Shown: piece after piece, positions 48,415 to 63,294 of the stretch | Layout: each line of letters begins with the position of its first letter | Numbering within the stretch: the stretch's first letter is position 1 | Assembly (NCBI GenBank): GCA_902625455.1 | Contig: CACOBL010000003.1 | Coordinates: forward strand, 406 to 64,405 | Length of the DNA stretch: 64,000 nucleotides | Direction of reading: 5' to 3' | Source: an uncultured Candidatus Actinomarina sp. | GTDB lineage: Bacteria; Actinomycetota; Acidimicrobiia; Actinomarinales; Actinomarinaceae | Made by a program: the position numbers and the translations under genes | Notes under the pieces: generated by a model | Told to the model about the DNA's origin: nothing | Databases searched by the model: none | What the model saw: the letters and a program-made list of their open reading frames with translations, nothing else

Positions 48415-49035
48415 ATGACTGATATCCAACAAGACGGAAGAGCACGTAGACAGCAAGATATTTTTGACCTCAATAGGACAAAACTTATTAATACAGCTGT
48501 TGATGTAATAAATGAAGTTGGCGATATTAGAGAAGTTACTTTAACTCAAATTGCAAAAGAAGCTGGTGTATCACCTGCTACAGCTTACAATCATTTTCCT
48601 GACAGAATGGAAGATGTATTTTCAGCAATTGTTCATTCCAGAATGGATGTAGCTGCAAACATGGGTGCCACACTTGCAGACGAATCTTTAAGCGTAATTG
48701 AGAAATTGAAGAAGATTCCAGTCACATATGCTGAGAACCTTGTAAGCCTTGGATATACAGGAAAAGTTATTGTTGTACAAATGTTTAATTTAATCAATGT
48801 TAATAAATGGCTAGACCAAGATCCAGTACAAGCAATTACAGCTTTATTGAGTAATTCTGAGCAATATCAAGAAAGAGCAGATGAAATTGCTGTAAATGTT
48901 GCCACAGCATTTAGGGGAGCGATGTTTGAATATGCCTTAAATATTGGTGATCATGAACTGTTTAATAGATATTCAGAGGAGTTTTTCCTTAAAACCTCCG
49001 AAAATTTAGTAGAAAACATACTAAAACAGTACTAA
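48415..49035 (+). CDS. TetR/AcrR-family transcriptional regulator
   Basis: TKLINTA...VTLTQIAKEAGVSPATAYNHF HTH; TAATAT box 6 nt upstream. Confidence 0.9.
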   Translation: MTDIQQDGRARRQQDIFDLNRTKLINTAVDVINEVGDIREVTLTQIAKEAGVSPATAYNHFPDRMEDVFSAIVHSRMDVAANMGATLADESLSVIEKLKKIPVTYAENLVSLGYTGKVIVVQMFNLINVNKWLDQDPVQAITALLSNSEQYQERADEIAVNVATAFRGAMFEYALNIGDHELFNRYSEEFFLKTSENLVENILKQY

Positions 49036-49109: not shown

Positions 49110-49130
49110 TAAAAAAAGTTGTTGTGTGTG

Positions 49131-52100
49131 ATGAATAAATATAATTTTATTTTGTTTTGTCTTAAAGTTAAGACGTTCTTTCACGCCATCAACTATAAAA
49201 AAATCACAACAACAACACTTCATGTTCTTTTATTTGCATTAGTATTTATTTCTTCTTGGGCCACACCTCAAGAAGAAGCATATGCAAATACAACATGGGA
49301 ATGTAACGATGCCGCAGAGAGAGCGTATTTCTATAAACTTGACTGGGAGTTTACCGACAACTTTTTTACAATCTCTCAATATGTTGCCACATCTACATCA
49401 ACAGTTAACTTAGATGAGACTCAAGTAAGTTTATCTGGCTTAACGGTAGGTGGAACAAGCATAACTGGTGTAAAAGGTATTAATGGTTTAGCTATGTCAC
49501 CTGATGGAAAGATGTATGTAACAATCACATCTTCAGCAAACGGTACTGATCTTTTCCAAATAAATACTAATGGTTCACTCACACACTTAAAAAATATGGG
49601 AGCATATGGAACTATTGGTCAGTTAGATTTCTATCAGCTACCAGGTGGTGGTGGTCACTATGGTTTCTCATCTGGTGAGTATGTCTCTAAAGATGGCATA
49701 GATAGAATTTATTTCTCACAGGGTGCATTTGATACTGACTCTGATGGAAATGGATCAGACATTGCCAGACCAAACTCAAACATGATCTATAACGTAGCAA
49801 ACGGTACAACAACTACCTTTCCAGATCCAGGGTTTGTTAGCCCAATTAATGCTGCTGACTACGCCTATGTAGGTGACTGGGACGGATATGAGTTGGTCAC
49901 ATATGATGCAATCAATAACAAAATACACAGATTTGATATCGATAATCCATCAAACTCATCTTCAATTGACCCACAAACAAGTGCGTTTTCTGGAGCTAGT
50001 ACTGTACTTTCAGCATTTTCTTATAAAACACCCCAAGGTGAGATTCGATTTATTGTAGATGACACTAATGGTATGCGTTTTGAGATTGTAAGAAATGGAA
50101 CAAATAACTATAGCGTTACCCAAAAAGGAAGCTCTTTCTTAACAAACAACTCTGATGGTGCTTCTTGTGGACCTAATGCATATGATCCATTTTCTCCAAC
50201 ATTTAAAGCCACTCTTACAGCATGTTCCAATGGTTTCGCTACACCACAACTTAAAATCACAAACAACAAAACAAGCACACAATACTTTGATGTAGATGTC
50301 AGTGTAGATGGAGGTTCGTTTACAAATCTTGTTGACGGGCAGTCGGTGACTCCTGGCAATGATATAACGCTTTCGGCAAATCAGGAATATGACGGTCGAA
50401 CAATACAATTCCGTATGCGCTACAACTCATCTAATCCAAGTTCAGGCACATACTACAACGTAGGTCAACAATTAACTGTCAGTGGATGTGGAAACTATAC
50501 GTTAGCAACTGGTTCTGTTGCGACTGCAAATGGAACATGTTTAGGTGATGGTACATCAAAGCCTACAATTACTCTCACAGCAACTGGTAACGCGACGGTA
50601 TTTTTTGATGTTGAGTACAAAGTTGGAAGTAGCGCCTGGCAGGCATTAAAAGATGGTGAACAAGTTACAGTTGGTTCTCCAGAGACTTACGAAATAACGT
50701 CAGCAGTAGCACACAACTCTGTCGTTACTTTTAGATATATTGTTGGCGCTAGCAATCCATCAAGTACGAACTGGACAGAGTCGTCTGGTGTAACTGTTAA
50801 CTGTCCTGTATACAGTATGACTGCAAGTTTAAATTCACCTTCATGTACAACTAATCAACCATATAAGACCTACACAATGACAGTGCAAAACACAGGTAAC
50901 CAAACGCACTATGTTCACATTAAAGGAAATATAAATCAAACTGGTCAGTCTGGAACCGAAAGTTTTATTGAATATGGCACAAATATTACTGCTAATTCAT
51001 CACGTACATTTAGTTTTCAAATGTGGCATGGTGTTACACCACAAATTAAATGGATGCATTCCACTAATTACTCCAGTTATAACCTTTTCGCAAACGGTGT
51101 TAATGGATCTTTGACGTCTAATTCAAGTTATGGATCCTATTTAAAATCCGGCGATTCTTTTCTAACGCTTGCTGACTCAGAGGTTGACTGTTTCTATGTA
51201 GGTAGTGGTGGTTCCTCTAATAACTCAAGTAGCAACTATAACCAAACTACGAAAACTATATCACAGGTTTGTGATGCTCAGGGAAGTGCTATTGCAAGAT
51301 TTACTATTAAACAAAGAGATGCAGCAAACGATAGCTTTAATGGTTTTATTGATGTTGATTACTCAACAAATGGTTCATCGTGGTCAACTCTGGCTGATGG
51401 GGTAGCATTTAACGACGGAGTAACGTTAACGTATGACTCGCCATCTACATTATCCTCGGGATCAACTGCGTATTTTAGATTTAGAATTGACGATACAAAT
51501 CCTGATAGCACAGCAGCATGGGGTATCTACACCCAGGCAATAAATTGTCAGGCTGATTTTAGTGTTTCACAAACAGTAACCTCATGTTCAGCATCTGGTC
51601 AAACTACAACACTTACAATTACTAATAACGAATCTCAGACTATTTACTTTAGAGCAGTACCTTCAAAAGTTGGTGCAAGCAATAGTGAAACATCCTCATC
51701 TAATTACGAAGATGATGATATCCAGTTATTCTCCATTGCTGCAAACACTACATACTCACACACAACAACAAAGACATATACATATGGTGTCTCCAGTTAT
51801 ATTTACTGGAAAGTTCAGGGCTCTTTTACACAAAATCCAGATTGGACCAATTCAACATTACATAACTTTAATTACACTTCAGAAGTACAAACAAATTGTA
51901 ATCCTTCAACTACTGGAGTTTATGCAATGAGTGCCTGTACTAACACAGGAAAAACTTCAACGCTTACAATACAAAATAACGAATCTGTAACTATTTATGT
52001 TCGTATTCAACCATCAGAAGATCAACTTAGTACAACTAGTTATACCAGTAACTCATATTATGATAATTCACCAGCAGCTGTCGTTTATGCAATTCCAGCA

Positions 52101-55100
52101 AACACAGCCTACACATACGATGCAAACTCAAGACCTGGTTTTCAAAAAACATATACGTCAGATGTTGGTGCGCATTATTATGCACATTGGAGATATCAAG
52201 TTTCATATGTAGAGAATGTTACTTGGTCATCAGGCCCGTTCCCTTATGTTTATGTCAGTCAAGCTAGGTCATCCGCAGATATTACTTCTGGTTATTACGG
52301 AATTAACTGCAATCAGTATGAAACACTACCAACTAGTAGTTACCAGTATCGCTTTCCTGATAATACACAAACAAATTCCTGCATAAACGATCAGATTTGG
52401 GTTTCAAATCAATTTTATAACAATTCATCAGGAAACAACGAAGCTTACTCCAAGCAGTGGTGGATTTTTGAGTACTCCGTTGATGATGGACAAAACTGGT
52501 CAACTGCAAATATTTTCTACAGGAGACACAACTCTTCTACAATCCATTCTCCTCCATCAGCAACTAATAATAATGGTTGGTCTGCAACAACTACTACTGG
52601 AACTTATATTGAAATGACAAGTTACTCTTACAGATATTTCACGATTGGAACAAGGCTTGCTGATGGTTCTGTAGTAAAACTCAGATATAAAAGAGCATTT
52701 TCACAATCAGATTTAGCTAATGCTAGTTACATAGAACTTGGTTCACAGAATATGTCAACAGCAGACAGGACTGCAGAATGTGATGTTGATTTAACAGATT
52801 TTATTGAGGGAAGTGGGAATACTGATGTGACCGTTAATGGTACTGTAGTTTCTAATCTTTTAACACAAGGCACTTGTCAAAATAATGTTAATACTGGTTT
52901 TGCAGACACCATTTTTAGTATTGAAACAGATTCAGGTTCGGCTATTTATTATCTGAAGTTAGAAAAAAAAGTTGATGGAGCTGAGAACTGGACAACGGTT
53001 TACACAAATTATCAATTAAATGCTAATACGCTACTGCAAGAAACTGCACAGCTCAATCATGGACAAACCATTCAATATAAACTACATCTCTCACCAGATA
53101 CTGGAGACTTTTCTAATGCAACTGCATATACCACACCAGTTCTAACAGTTAACTGTCCAAGTACTGGTGCACAGTTAGTTTTTGCATTAGGAGACTGTGT
53201 CTCTGGAGGTAACAAACCTGTAGTAACAATTACTAATACTGGTTACCTAACAGCGCATTATGATGTCGATTACTCTATAGATCAAGGCAGTAACTGGCTT
53301 GATGCATTTGGTACAGATGTCTACAAATCTGTTTTACCAGGTGAATCAACTACATTTACCTTTACGCCAACTATGACTCAGGGTCAGACTGTAGCTTTGA
53401 AATACAGACATGCGCCAACTGCACCAGTTACTTCAGGTGCATTCACAACAGTGAATAATACAATTCTTGTTGACTGTGATGTTAATGCAACTATTGGTGA
53501 TGTGTTACAGGTTTATACAGATGCAACATGTTATGGAGGAAATCAGCGATTTAAGGTCAAAATTGATAATGATGAAACTACTTCAATACAGCTTCAGTAC
53601 AGAGCTTCAGAAGATGGAGGATCTTCTTGGACACACGCAGGTAGCGTTACTGTAAATGCATCTACTGATGATTACGTAACAATATCTGTAGATTTTCAAC
53701 ATGGAGATTCAGTAACATTTGAATTTAGAACAGAGCTTACAGCAACTTCTGCATACTCTACATACACTTCAAAAGGTCCGTATACAGTGTCATGTAATTT
53801 AGATGATTACTTTACAATATCAACATCGTATGATGGTTGTGCTTCACTTGGCCCAGATTTATTGAAACTAAAATTACAAAAAACACAAAGTACTGGTAAT
53901 ACTTATAATTACCTACATTTTGATATTGAGATATCACATGATGGCTCTACATGGAATCCTTTTGGACCATGGATACATCATGGATATGGAAGTAATGAAA
54001 CCAATTACACCAACTATGGCACCAGTTATTACAGTAATCAATATTACAGTTCTGCATACCCAAGCCACTCAGGTTATGTAAATATTGGTACCTATACCAG
54101 TTCCAATGCTAATTTCTCAGCATTTCATTTTGTTGACTCCTCACATGCCTACAAAATTCGATATCGATATTACAACTCAAATTCGACGTCTCATGATCAT
54201 ACGGCCTTAATGAACTTGTCATGGACAACCATAGATGTTGCAGCAAACCTAGGTTGTGAATCTAATGATATTGAGCCTGTTACATTAGTGTCTACACAGC
54301 AACAGTGTCAGGAGAATAGAGGAAAAGTCCAGTTTACATTTACCGACACTACGATTTCTCACAACGATCCTTATGAAGCAGCAACATTAATTTACAGGTA
54401 CTCGACGAACGGTGGAACAACGTATTCGAATCATACAAAAGTTAATCTGAATAACTCCACAACGTTTGAGCTTCCTCAATCTGCTACGTTACCTAATACA
54501 ACAGTGATAACTGTTCAATGGGGTTACATTAGAGATTTCAATAAGATTAATAATTATTTTGACCACATAGGGTCAACAAATAAAAATGGTCTTTATACAA
54601 GAATGCCGACGAGTACTCAGAATTATAATGATGGAACTCTTTCAACAAACTTCAGTACAATTGTCTATGAAAATACCACTAATATCTCTGTGGACTGTGA
54701 TCCAGATTCCACATATTCACAGACTGTAACTGAGTGTGTGTGTAGTGATAGTGGTGCAAACTCTACATTAACTATTACTAATAACGAAAACTACACAACG
54801 TATTACAAGGTTATGTATTCATTGGATGGTGGTCTAACATGGCAGTACTCTAATCCAAATATTGAGTCGGCCTACGACATATCGGTTGCGGCGGGGGCCT
54901 CAGACTCATCACAGACAGTTTTCGTACCAGACGGAAAAACAATTACATGGAGAATAAAAGATACTACTAATGGTGGTGACTTTGTTGGTCAAGACTGGGA
55001 AACTGTCGATGCAAGTGAGACTGTTGATTGTGGTTGTTCCGGTGGTGTTGTAGATCTTACTTTAGGTTCTTGTGGAAATGGTGCTGCTACACCAACAGTA

Positions 55101-58100
55101 ACTTTGGACGTGAATTCAACAGATACAACATATTTTAAGATTGAGTATAAGAGAAGTACTGACAGTGATTGGATAGTGTATAGGGCACAGGAAACTGTGA
55201 CGGGCGGTAATGATGCTCAGTTACAGTTAGATGTCACTGTTCCTCACTCAGCAACTATTCAAGTTAGATATAGAATTAGTAAAAGCACATCAACACTAAA
55301 TACTGCAGAATTAAAATACTCAGATACACTTACTGTAGATTGTCCATTTAACACAGTTTCATTTACACCTAATACTCCTGTATGTACAACAAACAATGTA
55401 CAACAACCAAATATGACTGTTGTTAACACTACATCATCAACTTCAGCGGCGTATGTAAATGTACAATACAAAATCATTAATACAACTACTAGTGAAGATT
55501 TATCTGCTGGAACGTGGGCTAATACAACATTAATGGGAGATCTTTTGCCTGCAAACGGTGCAGCCTATGTTACAGGTGACACTATAAATGTTTCAGAGGG
55601 ACAGAAAATAATTTGGCGATATGAGTGGTCATACACCAATACTTTTGCCGGTAGCTGGACATACGACCAGACTGCATCATTTGTTAACTGTGTAAAAGAC
55701 TTTACTGTTACTCAGACACTTGGTACATGTAATGCAGGTGTAAAAGCATCAACTGTAAGGCTTACAAATAATGAGACATTTGCTACTTTATATTTCAAAG
55801 TTGAGAGATCTTTTGACAATGTCAACTTCACAGTTGTAGAGGGTAATGTTGAGGTTGCCCCAACAGGTTTTCAAGAAGTCATAGTAGATGTACCTCATAC
55901 AAAACGTGTTTACTGGAGAGTTACTGCTACCAATATCAGCAACAACTATACAGCTGCTTATGCAACAGTAGCATCAATAGTTCAGTCAGATCTTGTAGAA
56001 TGTCCAGTTGTGGCAGGTACTGCAGAAGCAAGTTTAGGTAACTGTGTTGGAGGAGCACAGCAATCTACATTCAGTTTTACAAATCCAATATCATCAAATG
56101 CAAATGCTTTCTTTCATATTCAATACACATTAGATGGTGGTTCTAACTGGACAACTATAGTGGAAGAAGTGCAGCCTGGAGCTACAGAGCAAAAAACCAT
56201 CGCTGTACCTAGTGGTCAAACAATTAGATGGAAGTATTATCCACACACACAAGTAGCTACGCCATCAGGAGTTGCCTATGTTGAGTTAACGGAAAGTGCA
56301 GTCTCAGATTGTACATTCGACACTATTGAGACAGTAGCAATAGGTGAGTGTGATACTAATGGTGAGGCACTATCTAGTTATGTAATCCAGAACAATACTG
56401 GTACAAATCTTTACTACAAAATCCAATACAAAATCCAAGGAGAAAGTGTTTATACAACTGTCGACGACGACTTCTTATTAAATGCAAATACGACATCTAC
56501 GGCGTTTACAAAATCTGTACCATCAGGAAAATATATTGAGTGGAGATATTCTGTATCGAATGATCTAAACCTTATAGCTGTAGCTACTCCAAAATCACCT
56601 ATACAAAGTGCAACAGTTAATTGTAGTATTATCGACCCAGGTTTTGAGATCGCACAAGGTTCCTGTAGAGATGGGAATAAAGATGCATACTTCTATGCTA
56701 AGAATGGTGCTGCAGCAACGTCAGATGTTTATTTCCAAGTTGAAGTAAGCGTTAATGGAGAAGCATATACATCAGCAGGAACAATTATTGTTGGACCAAA
56801 TAGCCAAGCAACAATTGAAAAAACAAATCTTTCAAATGGCAACACTATTAAGTGGAGATATAAGACTTCTAAAGATAACGTAACGTACTCCACTGATTAT
56901 TCGGAATCAAGCACAATGACTATTACATGTTTATCTGGTGATGACGTCTCTATAACTATCCCAACCACATGTAACTCTAACGGAACAAAAACTGCAACTG
57001 TTACAACGGTAAATAACAGTTCATCTGATAAATTTTATTTAATTGAATACTCACTTGAGCAAAGTCCATCTAACTGGGTTTCTTTAACAAACAATTTTGG
57101 ATTGGTCGCTTCTAACACCAACACCCAAACTAAATACTTATCTGAGGGTGAGTACTTTACTATTAGGTACAAGATTTCAAATACTAATACCACATCAGCT
57201 TTTACAGGAATTGACTATATTGTTAGCGAGACAAAAGGACCTGTTAACTGTTCTGGCGACATTGAGTGGAGAGTTGCATTAGATGCTTGTCAAAGTGGTA
57301 AAAGAGATTCAGTATTCTATTATTTAAATAAGCCAAGTACTGGTGCTCCTGTATATTTCTTAGTTGAGTATTCAATAGACGGTGGAGCTTGGACAAATCC
57401 TAAAGCAGGACAGACAGCAAATTACTATACATCCCTACATACAAATAGTAATGAGCAATCTATCTCTGTAGAAGTTGGTTCGGGATCAACAATTCAATGG
57501 AGATTCAAAGATTCTCTAAGCACAGATGCGTTTGCTAATAAATCATTTACTTCTGGAACACCTAATGGACCACTGTCAGTGCTATGTGATGGAAGCATTT
57601 CACACAACGTTACTATTGGTTCATGTGTTGACAGAAAAGCATCATCAACATTGACATTGACAAATGATGGATTTGTAGATGTTTATGTCGATGTATGGAT
57701 AAGTTATGACGGTGGAGCTAATTGGAACAACCATGCAACTAGTCAGAAAGTTATAACAACATCACCAAAAGTATTTACTCAGAACAATATTACAAACGGA
57801 TCAGTTGTTAAGTGGAAATACAAATATGCAAGTACTTCTGCTGCAATTTCAAGCGCAAGCGATGTTTTAACTGATGATAAACCAGCAATTGATTGTGATT
57901 CATTAGTAACAACTCAGATTACATATTCACATGCATTTGATTCATGTGCTGATGGTGAGAGAGTTGGAACATTTACAATTAATAACCCATCAACAACAAA
58001 CAATACTGTATATGTAGAGGTGCAGTACAGAACAAAATCATCACAATCAAATAATTTCTGGACACCATATACAACATTAAATGTTGAGAGTATTGCTGCA

Positions 58101-60110
58101 GGTGCTTCAAAAGGATTTAATGCGCCTTCTGTACCTAGTGGAGGTTATGTTGATTGGAGATTTAGAGCGTCACTTGCATCCAATGATTTTGCTGGAGATT
58201 GGACGAATGATACTCATCCAGGATATTTAGCTCAATGTTTCCAATCTTCATCGCACGTTCATACTCTAGAATCTTGTATTGATGGAGAACAATACTCTAA
58301 ATTAACAATTACAAACAATGGTTCAACAACCCAGTATTACCAAGTTCAGATTCAAATTAATAATGGCAACTGGGAAACAAAATTCCCTTCAACTCCTATT
58401 GCAGGTGGACAGAATTTAGAATTTCAATGGCCAATCCAGCAGGGAGAGACTATAAGGTGGCAGTATGTCGCTTCAACGGATACTGATTTTAGCAATGACT
58501 CTCTTGTTCCATCACTTGCAAAGACCAATCAGTGTACACCAGTATTTAGCTTACAGACACAGACTGCTTGTGCTGATGCATCAACTTTAAACAATAATCA
58601 AGTAAATAACACAAAAGTTACTTTGACATTGAACAATACATCATCAGTTGATGGAAGTGTTACTGTACAATACAGATATTTACAAACTGATAACTGGAAG
58701 ACTTTAACTACAACTGCAATCTCTGCAGGAAATTCTACAAATGTTGACTATACATTAGTTGATCCATATGTTGAATTTCAATATGCTCCATTTGGAACAA
58801 CAAACTGGAGTAATAGTGGATTGGTTTATAAGGTTACTAATTGCGATACTCCAGGCAACCAATTAACTGCTACAAACACATTTATTTGTAGCGAAGACCA
58901 ACCATTTGGCCAAGTAAAAATTTCTAACTCAACAGTTACCAATCAAACTGTTACTTACTCATACTCTTTTGATGGAAATAGTTGGATTAATGAAAAGACC
59001 GTACTAATTCCAGCTAATACAACACACCTTAGTGATCTAATAAATGTTACAAAAGGTACACAAATTAGATGGAGATACAAGCCTACTAATTTAACTGATA
59101 ATGATTACAAAACTCTAACTGATACAGCACCAGTTAATTGTGATATCACGACAGATCAGCAGATAATTCATACACTTGGTACATGTGAAAATAATAAAGC
59201 TTTATCAATTATCAAAGTAACTAATCTTTCCAGCACACAGAAATCATATTTACTTGAATTCAAAGTTGATAATGGTGCGTTTGCCAGATATGAGACATTA
59301 ATTATTTCAGCGGGTGACAATACATCAAAGACTCTTGAAATTTCTGAAGGTCAAAATATCCAATGGAGAATAATTGATGCAACAAGTGATGCTTCTACAA
59401 GAGCTGTTGATGGTAACTGGGATACATCGACTGTACTTACACTTAGTTGTACAACTCCTCCTCCTACAATTCCTGAGAATAAATTTATTTTTGAACCATT
59501 AATCTCTACCAGCAGAGTTTGTAGTGAAGATGGTGGTGCAATGTTTGGTATCACTGTAGATAATTCAAGATCAAATGTTGATGCTGATGTTATACAAAGA
59601 GTATGGGTTGATAAATTTACAGTATTTGAAAAACAAGAAACTATCCCAGCAGGAGAGTCAATTCAATTCTCTAGTTTTGAAATCAGCGAAGATAAGTTCT
59701 TTACAGTTGAGTTTGAAGTTACAAATGTGAAGAATGACAAGACACAATCAATGGTTAAAAACAAGACCTCTGACTGCATTGATAATGGAATCAGTCCAAC
59801 CGATGAACAAAACCCAGTCGACGGTATTGAAGTTGAAAATCTTATTGATGGAACTGGTGATGATCAAGAAATGGGAGATAATGGAGATGATATATTCTTC
59901 CTACCAGGTGATGACTTTGTTGAATGGGTTTACGATGAAAATGCATCAGATATATCACCACCTCCATTATGCCCAGGTGACGCAAGTTGTAATAATGGTG
60001 GAGAAGACTTTGCTCCAACAGGTTCAAATGTAGGCAGATTAATAATTCTCTTAGGTTCTTTACTTATGATGGCAGGTGGTTTTATCCTAAGTAGAGGGTA
60101 CAGATTTTAA
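49131..60110 (+). CDS. Giant (~3659 aa) sortase-anchored surface protein: signal peptide, putative beta-propeller head, 28 Cys-bracketed ~100-150 aa modules, acidic spacer, FAPTG sorting signal
   Basis: Signal ending AYA|N; head ends NNSDGASC; recurring C..(T/S)xTxxN..Y/FxVEYSxDGGxxW..VxxG..IxWRY..C; FAPTG + hydrophobic helix + RGYRF tail. Confidence 0.88.
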   Translation: MNKYNFILFCLKVKTFFHAINYKKITTTTLHVLLFALVFISSWATPQEEAYANTTWECNDAAERAYFYKLDWEFTDNFFTISQYVATSTSTVNLDETQVSLSGLTVGGTSITGVKGINGLAMSPDGKMYVTITSSANGTDLFQINTNGSLTHLKNMGAYGTIGQLDFYQLPGGGGHYGFSSGEYVSKDGIDRIYFSQGAFDTDSDGNGSDIARPNSNMIYNVANGTTTTFPDPGFVSPINAADYAYVGDWDGYELVTYDAINNKIHRFDIDNPSNSSSIDPQTSAFSGASTVLSAFSYKTPQGEIRFIVDDTNGMRFEIVRNGTNNYSVTQKGSSFLTNNSDGASCGPNAYDPFSPTFKATLTACSNGFATPQLKITNNKTSTQYFDVDVSVDGGSFTNLVDGQSVTPGNDITLSANQEYDGRTIQFRMRYNSSNPSSGTYYNVGQQLTVSGCGNYTLATGSVATANGTCLGDGTSKPTITLTATGNATVFFDVEYKVGSSAWQALKDGEQVTVGSPETYEITSAVAHNSVVTFRYIVGASNPSSTNWTESSGVTVNCPVYSMTASLNSPSCTTNQPYKTYTMTVQNTGNQTHYVHIKGNINQTGQSGTESFIEYGTNITANSSRTFSFQMWHGVTPQIKWMHSTNYSSYNLFANGVNGSLTSNSSYGSYLKSGDSFLTLADSEVDCFYVGSGGSSNNSSSNYNQTTKTISQVCDAQGSAIARFTIKQRDAANDSFNGFIDVDYSTNGSSWSTLADGVAFNDGVTLTYDSPSTLSSGSTAYFRFRIDDTNPDSTAAWGIYTQAINCQADFSVSQTVTSCSASGQTTTLTITNNESQTIYFRAVPSKVGASNSETSSSNYEDDDIQLFSIAANTTYSHTTTKTYTYGVSSYIYWKVQGSFTQNPDWTNSTLHNFNYTSEVQTNCNPSTTGVYAMSACTNTGKTSTLTIQNNESVTIYVRIQPSEDQLSTTSYTSNSYYDNSPAAVVYAIPANTAYTYDANSRPGFQKTYTSDVGAHYYAHWRYQVSYVENVTWSSGPFPYVYVSQARSSADITSGYYGINCNQYETLPTSSYQYRFPDNTQTNSCINDQIWVSNQFYNNSSGNNEAYSKQWWIFEYSVDDGQNWSTANIFYRRHNSSTIHSPPSATNNNGWSATTTTGTYIEMTSYSYRYFTIGTRLADGSVVKLRYKRAFSQSDLANASYIELGSQNMSTADRTAECDVDLTDFIEGSGNTDVTVNGTVVSNLLTQGTCQNNVNTGFADTIFSIETDSGSAIYYLKLEKKVDGAENWTTVYTNYQLNANTLLQETAQLNHGQTIQYKLHLSPDTGDFSNATAYTTPVLTVNCPSTGAQLVFALGDCVSGGNKPVVTITNTGYLTAHYDVDYSIDQGSNWLDAFGTDVYKSVLPGESTTFTFTPTMTQGQTVALKYRHAPTAPVTSGAFTTVNNTILVDCDVNATIGDVLQVYTDATCYGGNQRFKVKIDNDETTSIQLQYRASEDGGSSWTHAGSVTVNASTDDYVTISVDFQHGDSVTFEFRTELTATSAYSTYTSKGPYTVSCNLDDYFTISTSYDGCASLGPDLLKLKLQKTQSTGNTYNYLHFDIEISHDGSTWNPFGPWIHHGYGSNETNYTNYGTSYYSNQYYSSAYPSHSGYVNIGTYTSSNANFSAFHFVDSSHAYKIRYRYYNSNSTSHDHTALMNLSWTTIDVAANLGCESNDIEPVTLVSTQQQCQENRGKVQFTFTDTTISHNDPYEAATLIYRYSTNGGTTYSNHTKVNLNNSTTFELPQSATLPNTTVITVQWGYIRDFNKINNYFDHIGSTNKNGLYTRMPTSTQNYNDGTLSTNFSTIVYENTTNISVDCDPDSTYSQTVTECVCSDSGANSTLTITNNENYTTYYKVMYSLDGGLTWQYSNPNIESAYDISVAAGASDSSQTVFVPDGKTITWRIKDTTNGGDFVGQDWETVDASETVDCGCSGGVVDLTLGSCGNGAATPTVTLDVNSTDTTYFKIEYKRSTDSDWIVYRAQETVTGGNDAQLQLDVTVPHSATIQVRYRISKSTSTLNTAELKYSDTLTVDCPFNTVSFTPNTPVCTTNNVQQPNMTVVNTTSSTSAAYVNVQYKIINTTTSEDLSAGTWANTTLMGDLLPANGAAYVTGDTINVSEGQKIIWRYEWSYTNTFAGSWTYDQTASFVNCVKDFTVTQTLGTCNAGVKASTVRLTNNETFATLYFKVERSFDNVNFTVVEGNVEVAPTGFQEVIVDVPHTKRVYWRVTATNISNNYTAAYATVASIVQSDLVECPVVAGTAEASLGNCVGGAQQSTFSFTNPISSNANAFFHIQYTLDGGSNWTTIVEEVQPGATEQKTIAVPSGQTIRWKYYPHTQVATPSGVAYVELTESAVSDCTFDTIETVAIGECDTNGEALSSYVIQNNTGTNLYYKIQYKIQGESVYTTVDDDFLLNANTTSTAFTKSVPSGKYIEWRYSVSNDLNLIAVATPKSPIQSATVNCSIIDPGFEIAQGSCRDGNKDAYFYAKNGAAATSDVYFQVEVSVNGEAYTSAGTIIVGPNSQATIEKTNLSNGNTIKWRYKTSKDNVTYSTDYSESSTMTITCLSGDDVSITIPTTCNSNGTKTATVTTVNNSSSDKFYLIEYSLEQSPSNWVSLTNNFGLVASNTNTQTKYLSEGEYFTIRYKISNTNTTSAFTGIDYIVSETKGPVNCSGDIEWRVALDACQSGKRDSVFYYLNKPSTGAPVYFLVEYSIDGGAWTNPKAGQTANYYTSLHTNSNEQSISVEVGSGSTIQWRFKDSLSTDAFANKSFTSGTPNGPLSVLCDGSISHNVTIGSCVDRKASSTLTLTNDGFVDVYVDVWISYDGGANWNNHATSQKVITTSPKVFTQNNITNGSVVKWKYKYASTSAAISSASDVLTDDKPAIDCDSLVTTQITYSHAFDSCADGERVGTFTINNPSTTNNTVYVEVQYRTKSSQSNNFWTPYTTLNVESIAAGASKGFNAPSVPSGGYVDWRFRASLASNDFAGDWTNDTHPGYLAQCFQSSSHVHTLESCIDGEQYSKLTITNNGSTTQYYQVQIQINNGNWETKFPSTPIAGGQNLEFQWPIQQGETIRWQYVASTDTDFSNDSLVPSLAKTNQCTPVFSLQTQTACADASTLNNNQVNNTKVTLTLNNTSSVDGSVTVQYRYLQTDNWKTLTTTAISAGNSTNVDYTLVDPYVEFQYAPFGTTNWSNSGLVYKVTNCDTPGNQLTATNTFICSEDQPFGQVKISNSTVTNQTVTYSYSFDGNSWINEKTVLIPANTTHLSDLINVTKGTQIRWRYKPTNLTDNDYKTLTDTAPVNCDITTDQQIIHTLGTCENNKALSIIKVTNLSSTQKSYLLEFKVDNGAFARYETLIISAGDNTSKTLEISEGQNIQWRIIDATSDASTRAVDGNWDTSTVLTLSCTTPPPTIPENKFIFEPLISTSRVCSEDGGAMFGITVDNSRSNVDADVIQRVWVDKFTVFEKQETIPAGESIQFSSFEISEDKFFTVEFEVTNVKNDKTQSMVKNKTSDCIDNGISPTDEQNPVDGIEVENLIDGTGDDQEMGDNGDDIFFLPGDDFVEWVYDENASDISPPPLCPGDASCNNGGEDFAPTGSNVGRLIILLGSLLMMAGGFILSRGYRF

Positions 60111-61741
60111 TGCAGTATTTTTTTGTATATCTTTTAATAATTATCATAAATATCGTCGCTGTATTAGCTGTTTTGCGTGTTAGAAGAAATAGACAAAATG
60201 ATCCAAATGTTATTACAGACGTAAAAGATAGTGATATTGTTTATGAATCAGATTCACCGCAACAAGAAAAAAGACCAGGCTTTTCCTCCAGATTCTCAAG
60301 AAATAGTAATTTGTCTTTAGGTTTTAATGAAATAGGAGATGACGAAAAAGAAGTAATCTATGGTGGAGATTTGCTTGAGCTTGCTGTTAAGAAAAAAGTT
60401 ATTAAAAAAAAAGGGAATTGGTACTTGTATGAAAACGAAAAAATTGCCTACGGAAAAGACAAAGCTAAATTCTATTTATTAGAAAATCCTGTAATTGCCT
60501 CTGAGATTAGCAATAGGGTTTATGGAACAATCAAAGTACAAAATAATGATATGTCCGTCGAAGAATCTTCAAACGAGCTAGCCGACCAATCTAACAACAT
60601 ACAGAATTTACAATCTGTAAATTTATTATCTCAAGAGTACGAAGTTGAGCTTGCTGAGGTATATGTAAAATCTAATACATTAAAAAAAGTGATTGAAAAC
60701 ACAATTGGCACTGAAGTATTAATAAGTATTGATATTAGTGAAAAGTTCAATCCCGTTTTAAATTCACCTGAGGTTTATGCAGCTGAAGTAATAGGTCTGC
60801 TTAATGAAATAGATTATATGATTGCAGCTGTAGAGAATGTTAGTAAAAACTCAAAATATCTAGGTATTGAAGTTGATGAAAAATTATTAAGAGAGAGACT
60901 CAATTTATTAATGTCTAGTCGTTTCTCGATTGTATTTACAAAAAAACCTGTTCTTAAGCATTTAAGTTTACCGATGTTGAATTTTAGAAATAGAGGAAGT
61001 AAACCATCAAGGGCAAGAACTGTAAATATATCCAATAACAGTGGTAAATCAGCAATGATTCCACTTGGCATTGGCTTACTAATAGTCGGTCTTTTTATAG
61101 TTATCTATTCAGTTACTCAAACATTCTTTTCCATGTCAGTCATTGAGGATGAGCAAAATCTCCTTAGCTTAAAATATGAACAAAATCAGGACACTTCATT
61201 GGAAGAATTAAGATTCATTAATTCTAATTCTATTGAAACAAATGTTTCTCTTGATGAGACAGGGGAGTTTCAAGAATCTGTTTTAAGCCTTGTTAGTAAA
61301 ACAATGACAAATGAAAATGCTAATGAGGAATTCTTACCGGATGTTGTAGGTAGATTAATAATATTTCCTTCAAAAGTTGACCATTATGTCGTCTATGGAT
61401 CTAGTTTAGAGAAATTAGAATTTGGACCGGGGTATTACATTTCAACAGCACTTCCTGGAACCGGCGGAAATTTTGCTATTGCAGGTCATAGAACAACATA
61501 TGGTGCTCCATTTAAAAATTTAGACAGATTAGAAACAGGAGATAATATTTACTTTCAAACTAATACTAATCAATACACATACACAGTAAGTGAAGTAAAA
61601 ATTGTAGACCCAAGTGAGACATACCTACTTTCATCATTCGGTGATGACAGAATTACATTAACAACATGTCACCCAAAATTTTCAGCTAGGCAAAGGTTAG
61701 TAGTCATTGGGATGTTGACAAAAGTTGAGGTGTTTGGATGA
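60110..61741 (+). CDS. Class E sortase with two TM helices and a cytoplasmic RecA C-terminal-like domain
   Basis: GNFAIAGHRTTYGAPF (H460), ITLTTCHPKFSARQRL (C520, R529); TM1 aa ~3-22, TM2 aa ~316-335; aa 84-137 resemble the RecA CTD. Confidence 0.9.
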   Translation: MQYFFVYLLIIIINIVAVLAVLRVRRNRQNDPNVITDVKDSDIVYESDSPQQEKRPGFSSRFSRNSNLSLGFNEIGDDEKEVIYGGDLLELAVKKKVIKKKGNWYLYENEKIAYGKDKAKFYLLENPVIASEISNRVYGTIKVQNNDMSVEESSNELADQSNNIQNLQSVNLLSQEYEVELAEVYVKSNTLKKVIENTIGTEVLISIDISEKFNPVLNSPEVYAAEVIGLLNEIDYMIAAVENVSKNSKYLGIEVDEKLLRERLNLLMSSRFSIVFTKKPVLKHLSLPMLNFRNRGSKPSRARTVNISNNSGKSAMIPLGIGLLIVGLFIVIYSVTQTFFSMSVIEDEQNLLSLKYEQNQDTSLEELRFINSNSIETNVSLDETGEFQESVLSLVSKTMTNENANEEFLPDVVGRLIIFPSKVDHYVVYGSSLEKLEFGPGYYISTALPGTGGNFAIAGHRTTYGAPFKNLDRLETGDNIYFQTNTNQYTYTVSEVKIVDPSETYLLSSFGDDRITLTTCHPKFSARQRLVVIGMLTKVEVFG

Positions 61742-63294
61742 AACTAAGAAAATATTTTTCGGTTTTTCTTATATTTTTATTTTTTATCAATGCTGGTGGA
61801 ATTGAAGATGCTGAGATAAAAATTACAGCCAATAGAGCAGATCAAGAAAATTTAGTTGTCTCGTGGTCAATAAATGGCGTAGAGAATGTAGACGATGTTA
61901 TTTTGGAAGTACTTTTTGAAAACCCATCTGCAGGACAAGTGGAGAATCCATTGATTGTTGACGACATAACAATGGATGAATTAACGAGTTCAAGAATTAT
62001 TCCATGGGACGGAAAATCTAAGTTATTGATTAAATTAAAAATATCTACTATGAATTTTGTTCAATATACAGGCGATGGCTGTAATCATACATTCTGTTTA
62101 AGAGAAAATATTGAGGAATTTGAGTCACAAGTATTTGAGATTGATGAAGTTCCTACACTACCTACAGTTCCAACAACCATTGTAGAAGTTACTCCACCAG
62201 AGCCAATGGATAACTCTACCGTTGGTAATATTGAATTCACAAATGCCTTAATAACCACTATTCCTTTATTTAGTGATATAGATTTCTCTAATCAAGCAAA
62301 AAATGCCTTCGCATTTGGAATAACTTCAATGATTATCTTTTTATTCTATGCTGTGCTCTTAGCTCAGGAATGGTTTAACAGAATTATTTCTCATTACAGA
62401 GTTAAGTGGACAAAAAAAGAGACTGTCTTACAAGAGAAAACTAGACTTGAAACATTTATGGAGATTTCGTTAATGGCAATGATTACATCACTTATATATG
62501 CTTTTGTTGAAGAAGGCTTTACGTTTTCTGTTGAACCACAGAATTTAGCTATTTTCTTGGGTGTGCTGTTTGGTTTGATTATCGTTACATTTTCATACGA
62601 GGGTATCGAATCTTTAATTGAATATTTTATTTATGATCAAAAGACAAGGTTTAGTTGGAATCCTCAAGCAATGTTCTTTGCAATTTTATCTACAGTTCTA
62701 TTTATAGTGATAGATCTTCCTTTTGGATTTATCTTGGGTTTCATAGCCTCACTTCATATAGTTTCAAATCGTGAACAAGCTGACTTATCGCCTAAATTTT
62801 ATTCCATGATTTCATTAGCAATAGTTGGATACTTATTCTTTTATGCAACTTCTTTTGATTCTGTTCAATCATCAGGTGTATTAATGGCAATTTGTAAATT
62901 GACTTATCTAATGTGCCTTGAGGGTGTGATATTTAAAGCTGTCCCATGGGGCGGTAATGAATTATTTGACGCAATAGGAGACTCAAAGGGCTTGAATCAA
63001 GCAATGCCTGTAGTTAGTTTTTTGATTAGTGTTTGGTTGTTTATAAGAATATTGGTACTACCACCAGATAGTGAATTTAATCAAATGCAACAGACACTTC
63101 TTCAGAGTGGTGCTTTAGCTTATAGATTTGCAATGGTCTTACTTTTCTATATTGCAATTATTTTAATTTTAGGAAACTTCATGAAAAAATATGCTGAGTT
63201 AAACCGACCTGTACATTTTAATGGCGACGAGATGGTTTCTGACAGTGAAATAGGTGAATTGATTGAGGATGAATTAGAGCAAACAATTCGATAA
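61738..63294 (+). CDS. Polytopic membrane protein with N-terminal secreted beta domain and Pro/Thr linker (possibly FGLLP-motif family)
   Basis: Signal/TM, ~110-aa beta-rich domain, PTLPTVPTT linker, then about 9-10 hydrophobic helices with LAQEWFN and PFGFILG. Confidence 0.6.
   Translation: MKLRKYFSVFLIFLFFINAGGIEDAEIKITANRADQENLVVSWSINGVENVDDVILEVLFENPSAGQVENPLIVDDITMDELTSSRIIPWDGKSKLLIKLKISTMNFVQYTGDGCNHTFCLRENIEEFESQVFEIDEVPTLPTVPTTIVEVTPPEPMDNSTVGNIEFTNALITTIPLFSDIDFSNQAKNAFAFGITSMIIFLFYAVLLAQEWFNRIISHYRVKWTKKETVLQEKTRLETFMEISLMAMITSLIYAFVEEGFTFSVEPQNLAIFLGVLFGLIIVTFSYEGIESLIEYFIYDQKTRFSWNPQAMFFAILSTVLFIVIDLPFGFILGFIASLHIVSNREQADLSPKFYSMISLAIVGYLFFYATSFDSVQSSGVLMAICKLTYLMCLEGVIFKAVPWGGNELFDAIGDSKGLNQAMPVVSFLISVWLFIRILVLPPDSEFNQMQQTLLQSGALAYRFAMVLLFYIAIILILGNFMKKYAELNRPVHFNGDEMVSDSEIGELIEDELEQTIR

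Follow-up and report, generated by a model that had tools for sequence, protein, structure and literature searches.

Sortases are generally treated as simple, single-anchor extracellular enzymes. The view that they normally possess one transmembrane (TM) helix and a short tail, taken in a preliminary description of the DNA analysed here, is too broad, since SrtE1 of Streptomyces carries a cytoplasmic extension of approximately 160 amino acids that is functionally important and displays acidic and basic patches, with no recognised domain and a role that is unknown even in that genus (PMC5148588). In Escherichia coli RecA, the lysines K280, K282, K286 and K302 of the C-terminal domain (CTD) are implicated in the binding of double-stranded DNA (dsDNA), K286 and K302 being described as conserved and functionally important in a passage of PMC4666392. 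The present work concerns a gene of an uncultured Candidatus Actinomarina sp. in which these two kinds of protein meet. It lies at 60110-61741 of a stretch of 64,000 nucleotides of contig CACOBL010000003.1 (positions 406 to 64,405; assembly GCA_902625455.1), which is referred to throughout as the window and supplies the coordinates, and it encodes a sortase of 543 amino acids (P0001) with a domain of the Pfam family RecA_C between two TM helices.

The evidence leaves very little doubt that this is a genuine, transcribed and lineage-restricted two-TM hairpin sortase of Ca. Actinomarinales, dedicated to the giant protein encoded immediately upstream, with RecA_C inserted in its loop. For RecA_C itself the preferred reading, to which a probability of roughly 0.4 is given, is that the domain may tether the sortase flexibly, on the cytoplasmic side, to a polyanion, most plausibly the dsDNA of the nucleoid.

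The RecA-like domain and the topology of the sortase

The RecA-like sequence first recognised comprises residues 84-137 of the open reading frame (ORF), or nucleotides 60359-60520; the interval of 60356-60523 given previously is longer by one codon on either side. The Pfam profile RecA_C (PF21096) matched residues 86-140 with 60.9 bits (E 1.3e-16, gathering score 27) over 55 of its 57 positions, and the domain as a whole is placed at residues 84-140 (60359-60529). An isolated piece of 70 amino acids scored 66 bits against the same profile, and its comparison with PDB sequences by phmmer returned RecA chains only, including the isolated E. coli CTD (1AA3) at E 5.7e-11. Ungapped alignment to residues 270-323 of E. 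coli RecA yielded 25 identities in 54 positions; the preliminary description had quoted residues 84-137 correctly and arrived at about the same count (25 of 54) by hand against the E. coli CTD.

Identity of the sortase's RecA_C was about 45-46% to E. coli RecA and 33-36% to mycobacterial RecA CTDs. These values bear on the idea that RecA_C is a sensor of a nucleotide or second messenger such as cyclic di-AMP (c-di-AMP), through which cell-wall or osmotic signalling would reach the anchoring of the giant protein. Binding of c-di-AMP by mycobacterial RecA at its C terminus, but not by E. coli RecA, is reported in a passage of PMC11653572 citing Manikandan 2018, and a second site for nucleotide, in the ordered CTD of Mycobacterium smegmatis RecA, is named in the title of a study cited in PMC13076628. 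The RecA_C of the sortase is closer to the E. coli protein (45%) than to the mycobacterial CTDs, which argues against such a sensor and makes it distinctly improbable.

No match to the RecA ATPase core (PF00154) was obtained anywhere in the 543 residues, as had been claimed from the sequence, and the RecA equivalog model TIGR02012 scored 38.4 bits against a cut-off of 325.3, with only its last 53 positions (267-319) aligned. In the absence of the ATPase core the RecA_C-sortase is not a RecA, and action as a recombinase is impossible. An AlphaFold2 model of the full-length protein was poor, with a predicted local distance difference test score (pLDDT) of 43.8, and a model of residues 78-296 built from 16 family and paralogue sequences was used in its place. 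In this loop model, RecA_C is predicted with moderate confidence (pLDDT 60-71) to form a helix, three strands and two helices (H10-17, E22-24, E27-30, E33-37, H38-48 and H50-67). RecA was the protein in all 50 matches listed by Foldseek against the PDB, examples being 1XMS, 2REB and 7JY6, and most superposed with a root mean square deviation (rmsd) of 1.0-1.3 Å over 55 residues. Homology to the RecA CTD, as first proposed, is thus established by a significant sequence profile match together with the predicted fold.

Hydropathy indicated two TM helices in every family member, TM1 at residues ~3-22 (60116-60175) and TM2 at residues ~315-335 (61052-61114). Values for TM1 were 3.0-3.1 in the loci of clade A and 2.6-3.1 overall, and those for TM2 were 2.3-2.5. 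The two helices bound a loop of approximately 290 amino acids, an arrangement that departs from the single N-terminal anchor of class E sortases. Clusters of Lys and Arg are found on the loop side of both helices: RVRRNRQ follows TM1 on the predicted cytoplasmic side, and RNRGSKPSRAR...GKS precedes TM2 within a basic, variable segment (residues 286-314, RNRGSKPSRARTV...GKS; 60965-61051). An acidic IEDEQ stretch follows TM2.

RecA_C is flanked by two variable linkers, linker 1 (residues 30-83; 60197-60358; pLDDT <50) on the side of TM1 and the acidic linker 2 (residues 141-172; 60530-60625; low pLDDT) on the other. Linker 2 leads to a further conserved module, here termed the middle domain (residues 173-285; 60626-60964), for which an alpha/beta arrangement of helix, strand, helix, helix and strand was predicted with pLDDT 80-89. 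This domain of approximately 110 amino acids had no match in Pfam, and the 50 Foldseek matches listed all lie outside it. Among the data searched it was seen only in sortases of Actinomarinales; the sortases of other Acidimicrobiia and of other actinobacteria included in the same scan possessed no middle domain and, where a helix was found, a single one ahead of the catalytic domain.

Sortases of Actinomarinales with a middle domain and without RecA_C were found at L016:9056-11098, L016:3254-4474 and L017:444-1664, of which the last two represent a type of 406 amino acids with the order TM, middle domain, TM, sortase. Since the middle domain is common to sortases devoid of RecA_C, this plan is a feature of the Actinomarinales, and comparison of the sequences indicates that RecA_C with its two linkers (approximately residues 30-172) is an insertion between TM1 and the middle domain of an existing two-TM plan. 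Only RecA_C had earlier been described in the loop. That domain is indeed present, but the loop also holds the novel domain of ~110 amino acids that the RecA_C-less paralogues have in common.

The remaining one of these paralogues, L016:9056-11098, is a single frame that continues without a stop from the C-terminal ~290 residues of a surface protein through to the sortase, in the order Thr stalk, L(K/Q)LA(A/E)TG, hydrophobic helix, SSRKK, middle domain, second TM and sortase. This single-frame type was recovered from a long-read metagenome-assembled genome (MAG), two short-read scaffolds and more than 20 protein clusters (ENA, NCBI and Tara), is also present at L081:4477-6312 and L082:4090-5913 (proteins P0272-P0293), and falls into two clades with a mutual identity of ~47-48%. 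Frameshifts in the long-read MAGs and N-gaps in the scaffolds make it uncertain how far upstream the fused paralogue extends. To judge from its sequence, a sortase of this type would need to sever its own link to the substrate.

The fused paralogue and the distribution of charge both support a cytoplasmic location for the loop of the RecA_C-sortase, in agreement with the ~290 residue cytoplasmic loop of the preliminary description. The orientation of a sorting-signal helix is fixed: its basic tail stays in the cytoplasm and the protein that it anchors lies outside, such that the middle domain that follows the tail must be cytoplasmic. RecA_C, being situated between TM1 and this middle domain, is then placed on the same side.

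A further single frame of substrate (LANTG plus TM) and sortase was observed at L018:8090-10420, in which a coiled-coil-like cytoplasmic stretch occupies the place where RecA_C and the middle domain stand elsewhere. The cytoplasmic module is thus exchangeable between cassettes.

Distribution, transcription and conservation

Among 5.8 billion protein clusters searched through a word index, more than 100 of 541-554 amino acids carried both Pfam domains at 55-97% identity; they originate from marine data of Tara, ENA, JGI and NCBI. When each GTDB species was scanned through one genome, which answers the earlier suggestion that the fusion be sought in other genomes of Actinomarinales, the full-length protein was recovered from 15 species representatives (L001-L015). 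These were mostly single-cell genomes or MAGs of Ca. Actinomarina or Actinomarinales (OCS155), with one labelled Acidimicrobiaceae; the lineage is very abundant in the ocean.

Four of the 15 loci (L002, L007, L009 and L012) reside on short contigs of MAGs assigned to Gammaproteobacteria (RS590), Anaerolineales (UBA832), Flavobacteriales (ERR599163_bin.88) and Methanobacteriota (ARS96), and are likely to represent binning contamination of public genomes.

The same uninterrupted ORF was present in single-cell genomes, short-read MAGs and long-read MAGs. Metagenome unitigs from independent runs crossed the junction of the giant gene and the sortase gene as well as RecA_C without a joint, for example at 59955-60816 with five mismatches and at 60049-60492 with one. 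Contigs from the metatranscriptomes of several studies covered 60016-60926, 60175-60621, 60281-60549 and 59800-60144. The segment is thus transcribed, and a single RNA-derived contig carries the last part of the giant gene together with the beginning of the sortase gene, with the caveat that carry-over of DNA into RNA libraries is possible.

These data bear on whether the fusion could be an artefact, that is, a misassembly, the remnant of a recA pseudogene or the product of a wrongly assigned start. Nothing in favour of an artefact was found. Misassembly or chimerism is ruled out by the agreement of independent unitigs, single-cell genomes, long-read MAGs and RNA contigs, which span the junction between the RecA-like part and the sortase that had been singled out for checking. 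A start codon further downstream, leaving out RecA_C, is likewise ruled out, TM1 and RecA_C being conserved and under purifying selection. With unitigs and RNA contigs crossing every junction and the TM1 upstream of RecA_C conserved to 72% between clades, the probability of an artefact is negligible.

Searching 1.84 billion representatives of clusters at 50% identity with residues 1-320 by HMMER yielded 18 proteins at E <= 1e-10, all but one of them (17/18) members or pieces of the RecA_C-sortase family. The matches outside the family that were checked among the best 150 were ordinary RecA CTDs, including fragments, a duplicated chimera and frameshifted read-throughs, and no RecA_C in another non-RecA context was encountered among the matches of this search that were examined. 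As the matches examined were of the family and of ordinary RecA only, the architecture of the RecA_C-sortase is confined to one lineage. A second RecA_C was found neither in the 64-kb window nor in the 80 loci fetched, and these likewise hold no separate recA.

Conservation along the protein is uneven. Identity between clades was 72% for TM1, 33% for linker 1, 61% for RecA_C, 31% for linker 2, 61% for the middle domain, 30% for the segment preceding TM2 and 70% for the catalytic domain. Within clades, the ratio of non-synonymous to synonymous polymorphism (pN/pS) of RecA_C was 0.03-0.18, close to that of the middle domain, and that of the linkers was several-fold higher at 0.23-0.84; for linker 1, all pairs except the near-identical pair of the window and L001 gave 0.23-0.85. 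Invariant columns make up 40% of RecA_C. From these substitution patterns and the predicted structure, RecA_C is best described as a folded bead kept by selection, with a drifting linker on each side.

The strength of this constraint is relevant to a further proposal, in which RecA_C binds anionic phospholipids of the inner leaflet or serves mainly as a spacer whose folded bulk determines how the hairpin is arranged. A surface rich in basic and aromatic residues (KKK...W.Y.Y) and tethered beside the membrane by flexible linkers would suit the former, and a generic role is suggested by the variation of the cytoplasmic module among cassettes, being coiled-coil-like in L018 and the middle domain alone elsewhere. 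An inert spacer would not be expected to display a pN/pS of 0.03-0.18 and 40% invariant columns while the linkers on either side drift, and this explanation is considered improbable.

The catalytic domain and the gene cassette

All features of the cassette are encoded on the forward (+) strand. The catalytic domain of the sortase, predicted to be extracellular, occupies residues 411-543 (61340-61738). Sortase PF04203 matched residues 423-536 with 105.4 bits (gathering score 26.6). The triad His460 (GH460R), Cys520 (TTC520HP) and Arg529 was invariant in 118/118 family sequences and aligned to those of solved sortases. The nearest solved chains were sortases and included 5UUS, 5GO5/5GO6 and S. 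coelicolor SrtE1 (5CUW). Among the class models, class E (NF033747) scored highest with 126.2 bits, followed by class C (83.5), the LPxTATN-specific SrtD (81.4) and class D (70.7). Since the class E score lies below its cut-off of 160, the enzyme is called class-E-like, and the external class E sortase of the preliminary description can be retained in that form.

The gene upstream (49119-60110) encodes a giant repeat surface protein of 3663 amino acids, the presumed substrate. Although it contains many repeated Cys-bracketed modules, no Pfam match was obtained for it at E <= 0.01. Its C terminus holds a cell-wall sorting signal (60009-60107) composed of FAPTG, a hydrophobic helix and the tail SRGYRF. 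FAPTG conforms to the LAxTG-type signal, in which Ala is tolerated at position 2, and the motifs of the orthologues were FARTG, FADTG, YGPTG, YA[IV]TG, IPFTG and LPVTG. At the extreme C terminus (60081-60107 in the window), the giant proteins of L001-L015 follow the pattern (I/L)L(S/R)R(G/A/E)(Y/F)(R/K)(F/Y)-COOH in both clades. For the putative transpeptidase, a candidate substrate with xxxTG, a TM helix and a basic tail is thereby encoded in the adjacent gene.

The stop codon of the giant gene and the start codon of the sortase gene overlap by one nucleotide in TAATG (60108-60112), an arrangement suggestive of translational coupling. Overlaps of this kind (TAATG, TAGTG or TGATG) were present in most orthologues; the two genes abut in L003, L013 and L014 (TAAATG or TAGATG) and are separated by a gap of a few nucleotides in L010 and L012. 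The link between the sortase and the giant protein drawn in the preliminary description is upheld.

Downstream, a polytopic membrane protein of 518 amino acids with no family match is encoded at 61738-63294, its start overlapping the stop of the sortase gene in ATGA. The order giant protein, sortase, membrane protein was the same in orthologous loci wherever the contig reaches. An open frame of at least 3300 amino acids stands at the position of the giant gene in L001, L002, L006, L008, L010, L011 and L013-L015, the contig ending within the giant gene in the remaining loci, and an ORF of a size similar to that of the 518 residue protein stands at its position in orthologous loci. In a paralogous cassette, the ORF downstream of the sortase (L016:11744-13180) is visibly similar in sequence to the 518 residue protein. 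The cassette of the window is headed by a TetR-family regulator (48415-49035; Pfam TetR_N, 30.5 bits), and an ORF of 212 amino acids lies in the paralogous cassette (L016:11102-11740).

Elsewhere in the window, the N terminus of an ORF of 352 amino acids at 43729-44787 matched IF2_N (PF04760) with 22.3 bits, narrowly short of the gathering score (25.3). The window may thus hold another small domain that stems from a housekeeping protein handling nucleic acids and is joined to an unrelated ORF.

Proposed role and comparison with known systems

The residues of RecA_C were compared between the distinct sequences of the family (n=11) and 124 RecA domains. The lysines of the sortase equivalent to K280, K282, K286 and K302 of RecA are K94, K96, K100 and K116, respectively. 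K100 and K116 are invariant in the family, and Lys or Arg occupies the position of K94 in 82% and that of K96 in 91% of the distinct sequences. Lysines have been added where RecA has E, S or N, with K99 and K118 invariant and K101 present in 10/11 sequences. The mean net charge over 54 residues was +1.8 in the family and -1.9 in the 124 RecA CTDs, making the domain of the sortase about four units more basic. At the level of sequence, the retained and added lysines and the raised charge would fit a binding of polyanion or DNA that has been kept and strengthened. The preliminary description had proposed that the protein may be a membrane-spanning device by which DNA or a partner of the RecA CTD is linked to anchoring.

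Other substitutions remove polar residues of RecA. Q300, present in 122/124 RecA sequences, is replaced by an invariant Tyr (Y114), and hydrophobic residues are found in all or nearly all members in place of S/A292 (L106), Q/E307 (F121) and K/R310 (L124). The loss of Q300 is one of the points against a link between the sortase and the RecA/SOS machinery through a partner of the RecA CTD, such as RecX, LexA or RecA filaments. Homology alone speaks for such a link. The known partners of RecA bind in the groove of the filament, where they touch both core and CTD, and the core is absent here; in addition, no SOS-related genes were found in the neighbourhood of the sortase. This explanation is regarded as very improbable.

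Alternatively, the four hydrophobic positions may be those of a new interface. RecA_C would then have been reused as a protein-binding adaptor for the RGYRF-COOH tail of the substrate, the middle domain or another copy of itself, capturing or gating the substrate. The aromatic-basic tail R[GAE][YF][RK][FY] occurs solely with the RecA_C type of sortase, in both clades, and SSRKK or PRRRR stands at the C-terminal end of the substrates in RecA_C-less paralogues. A module for non-covalent capture would also be sensible in a split version of a system whose paralogue joins substrate and sortase covalently. The co-occurrence of tail and RecA_C nevertheless reflects a single evolutionary event, the domain and the tail are both basic, and we know of no precedent for the binding of short basic peptides by a RecA CTD. 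An adaptor is on this evidence unlikely, though less so than a lipid-binding domain or spacer.

The chain enters the membrane from outside to inside by TM1, continues into the ~290 residue cytoplasmic loop and returns outwards by TM2 to a stalk and the class-E-like catalytic domain. The loop consists of two folded modules, RecA_C and the middle domain, carried on disordered linkers. The preferred reading remains that of a tether to DNA, and its proposed mechanism is as follows. In a very small cell the nucleoid lies against the membrane. Ribosomes that re-initiate translation where an 11-kb gene for a secreted protein ends would produce the sortase, and binding to DNA would hold or concentrate the enzyme at the place of transcription, translation and export of the giant substrate. 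A tether to DNA would thereby take the place of the covalent link between substrate and sortase in the paralogous cassette. The further step, in which RecA_C ties the wall-anchoring enzyme to the chromosome such that anchoring of the giant protein is spatially coupled to its own locus, is considered doubtful. If true, it would constitute a coupling of DNA to envelope undescribed for any sortase, and a split counterpart of the single-polypeptide paralogue.

Several points weigh against a DNA tether. The changes to L106, Y114, F121 and L124 hint at protein contact, or at repacking following loss of the ATPase core. The conserved lysines are among the most conserved positions of the fold, and may have been retained for structural reasons. 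Binding of dsDNA by the isolated E. coli CTD is only weak, so that one copy on a tether would depend on avidity or on oligomerisation. Non-specific binding of DNA, moreover, gives no specificity for a locus. Finally, the sortase at the syntenic locus of Ca. Actinomarina SD4487 (L018), downstream of ORFs sized like the hom and thrC genes of the window, has neither RecA_C nor the middle domain, which indicates that the module is dispensable in some lineages.

The catalytic half of the protein resembles class E sortases and RecA_C is a known family; it is their pairing that appears to be new. No paper combining the terms 'sortase' and 'RecA C-terminal domain' was found in the literature searched, two papers on Actinomarinales genomes make no mention of sortase or RecA, and the statement in the preliminary description that the architecture is undescribed agrees with the absence of a published account from these sources. 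An abundant ocean bacterium with a minimal genome has kept a lysine-rich domain derived from a recombinase inside a sortase under purifying selection, a clean case of the reuse of a RecA sub-domain outside recombination. Its retention implies that information or position may be passed from the cytoplasm, possibly from the nucleoid, to the wall anchoring of a protein of 3663 amino acids. The RecA_C-sortase and its single-frame paralogue form a natural pair in which to ask how a cell keeps a sortase beside a giant substrate.

Compared with the RecA_C-less paralogues, the protein has the middle domain, TM2, stalk and catalytic domain in common (36% identity over residues 171-540). The cassettes of the paralogues likewise include an LAxTG surface protein and an ORF sized like the polytopic membrane protein. 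RecA_C and its linkers are missing from the paralogues, and in one type the sorting signal of the substrate stands in place of TM1. Compared with the RecA CTD (approximately residues 270-328 in E. coli; 1AA3, 2REB, 3CMU and 7JY6), the predicted fold is the same (rmsd ~1.1 Å) and the signature G..D...K.G.WY.Y..EK...GK..AK..L..NP...EI is common to both; the copy in the sortase is cut off from the ATPase core and the N-terminal domain of RecA and placed between two TM helices. With class E sortases, represented by SrtE1, the enzyme shares the His-Cys-Arg triad and a substrate with Ala or Pro at position 2 of xxxTG. Both the Actinomarina enzyme and SrtE1 (5CUW) have an extensive cytoplasmic part ahead of the membrane anchor, which is an analogy of position, whereas SrtE1 has one TM helix and the Actinomarina enzyme has two, together with two folded cytoplasmic domains.

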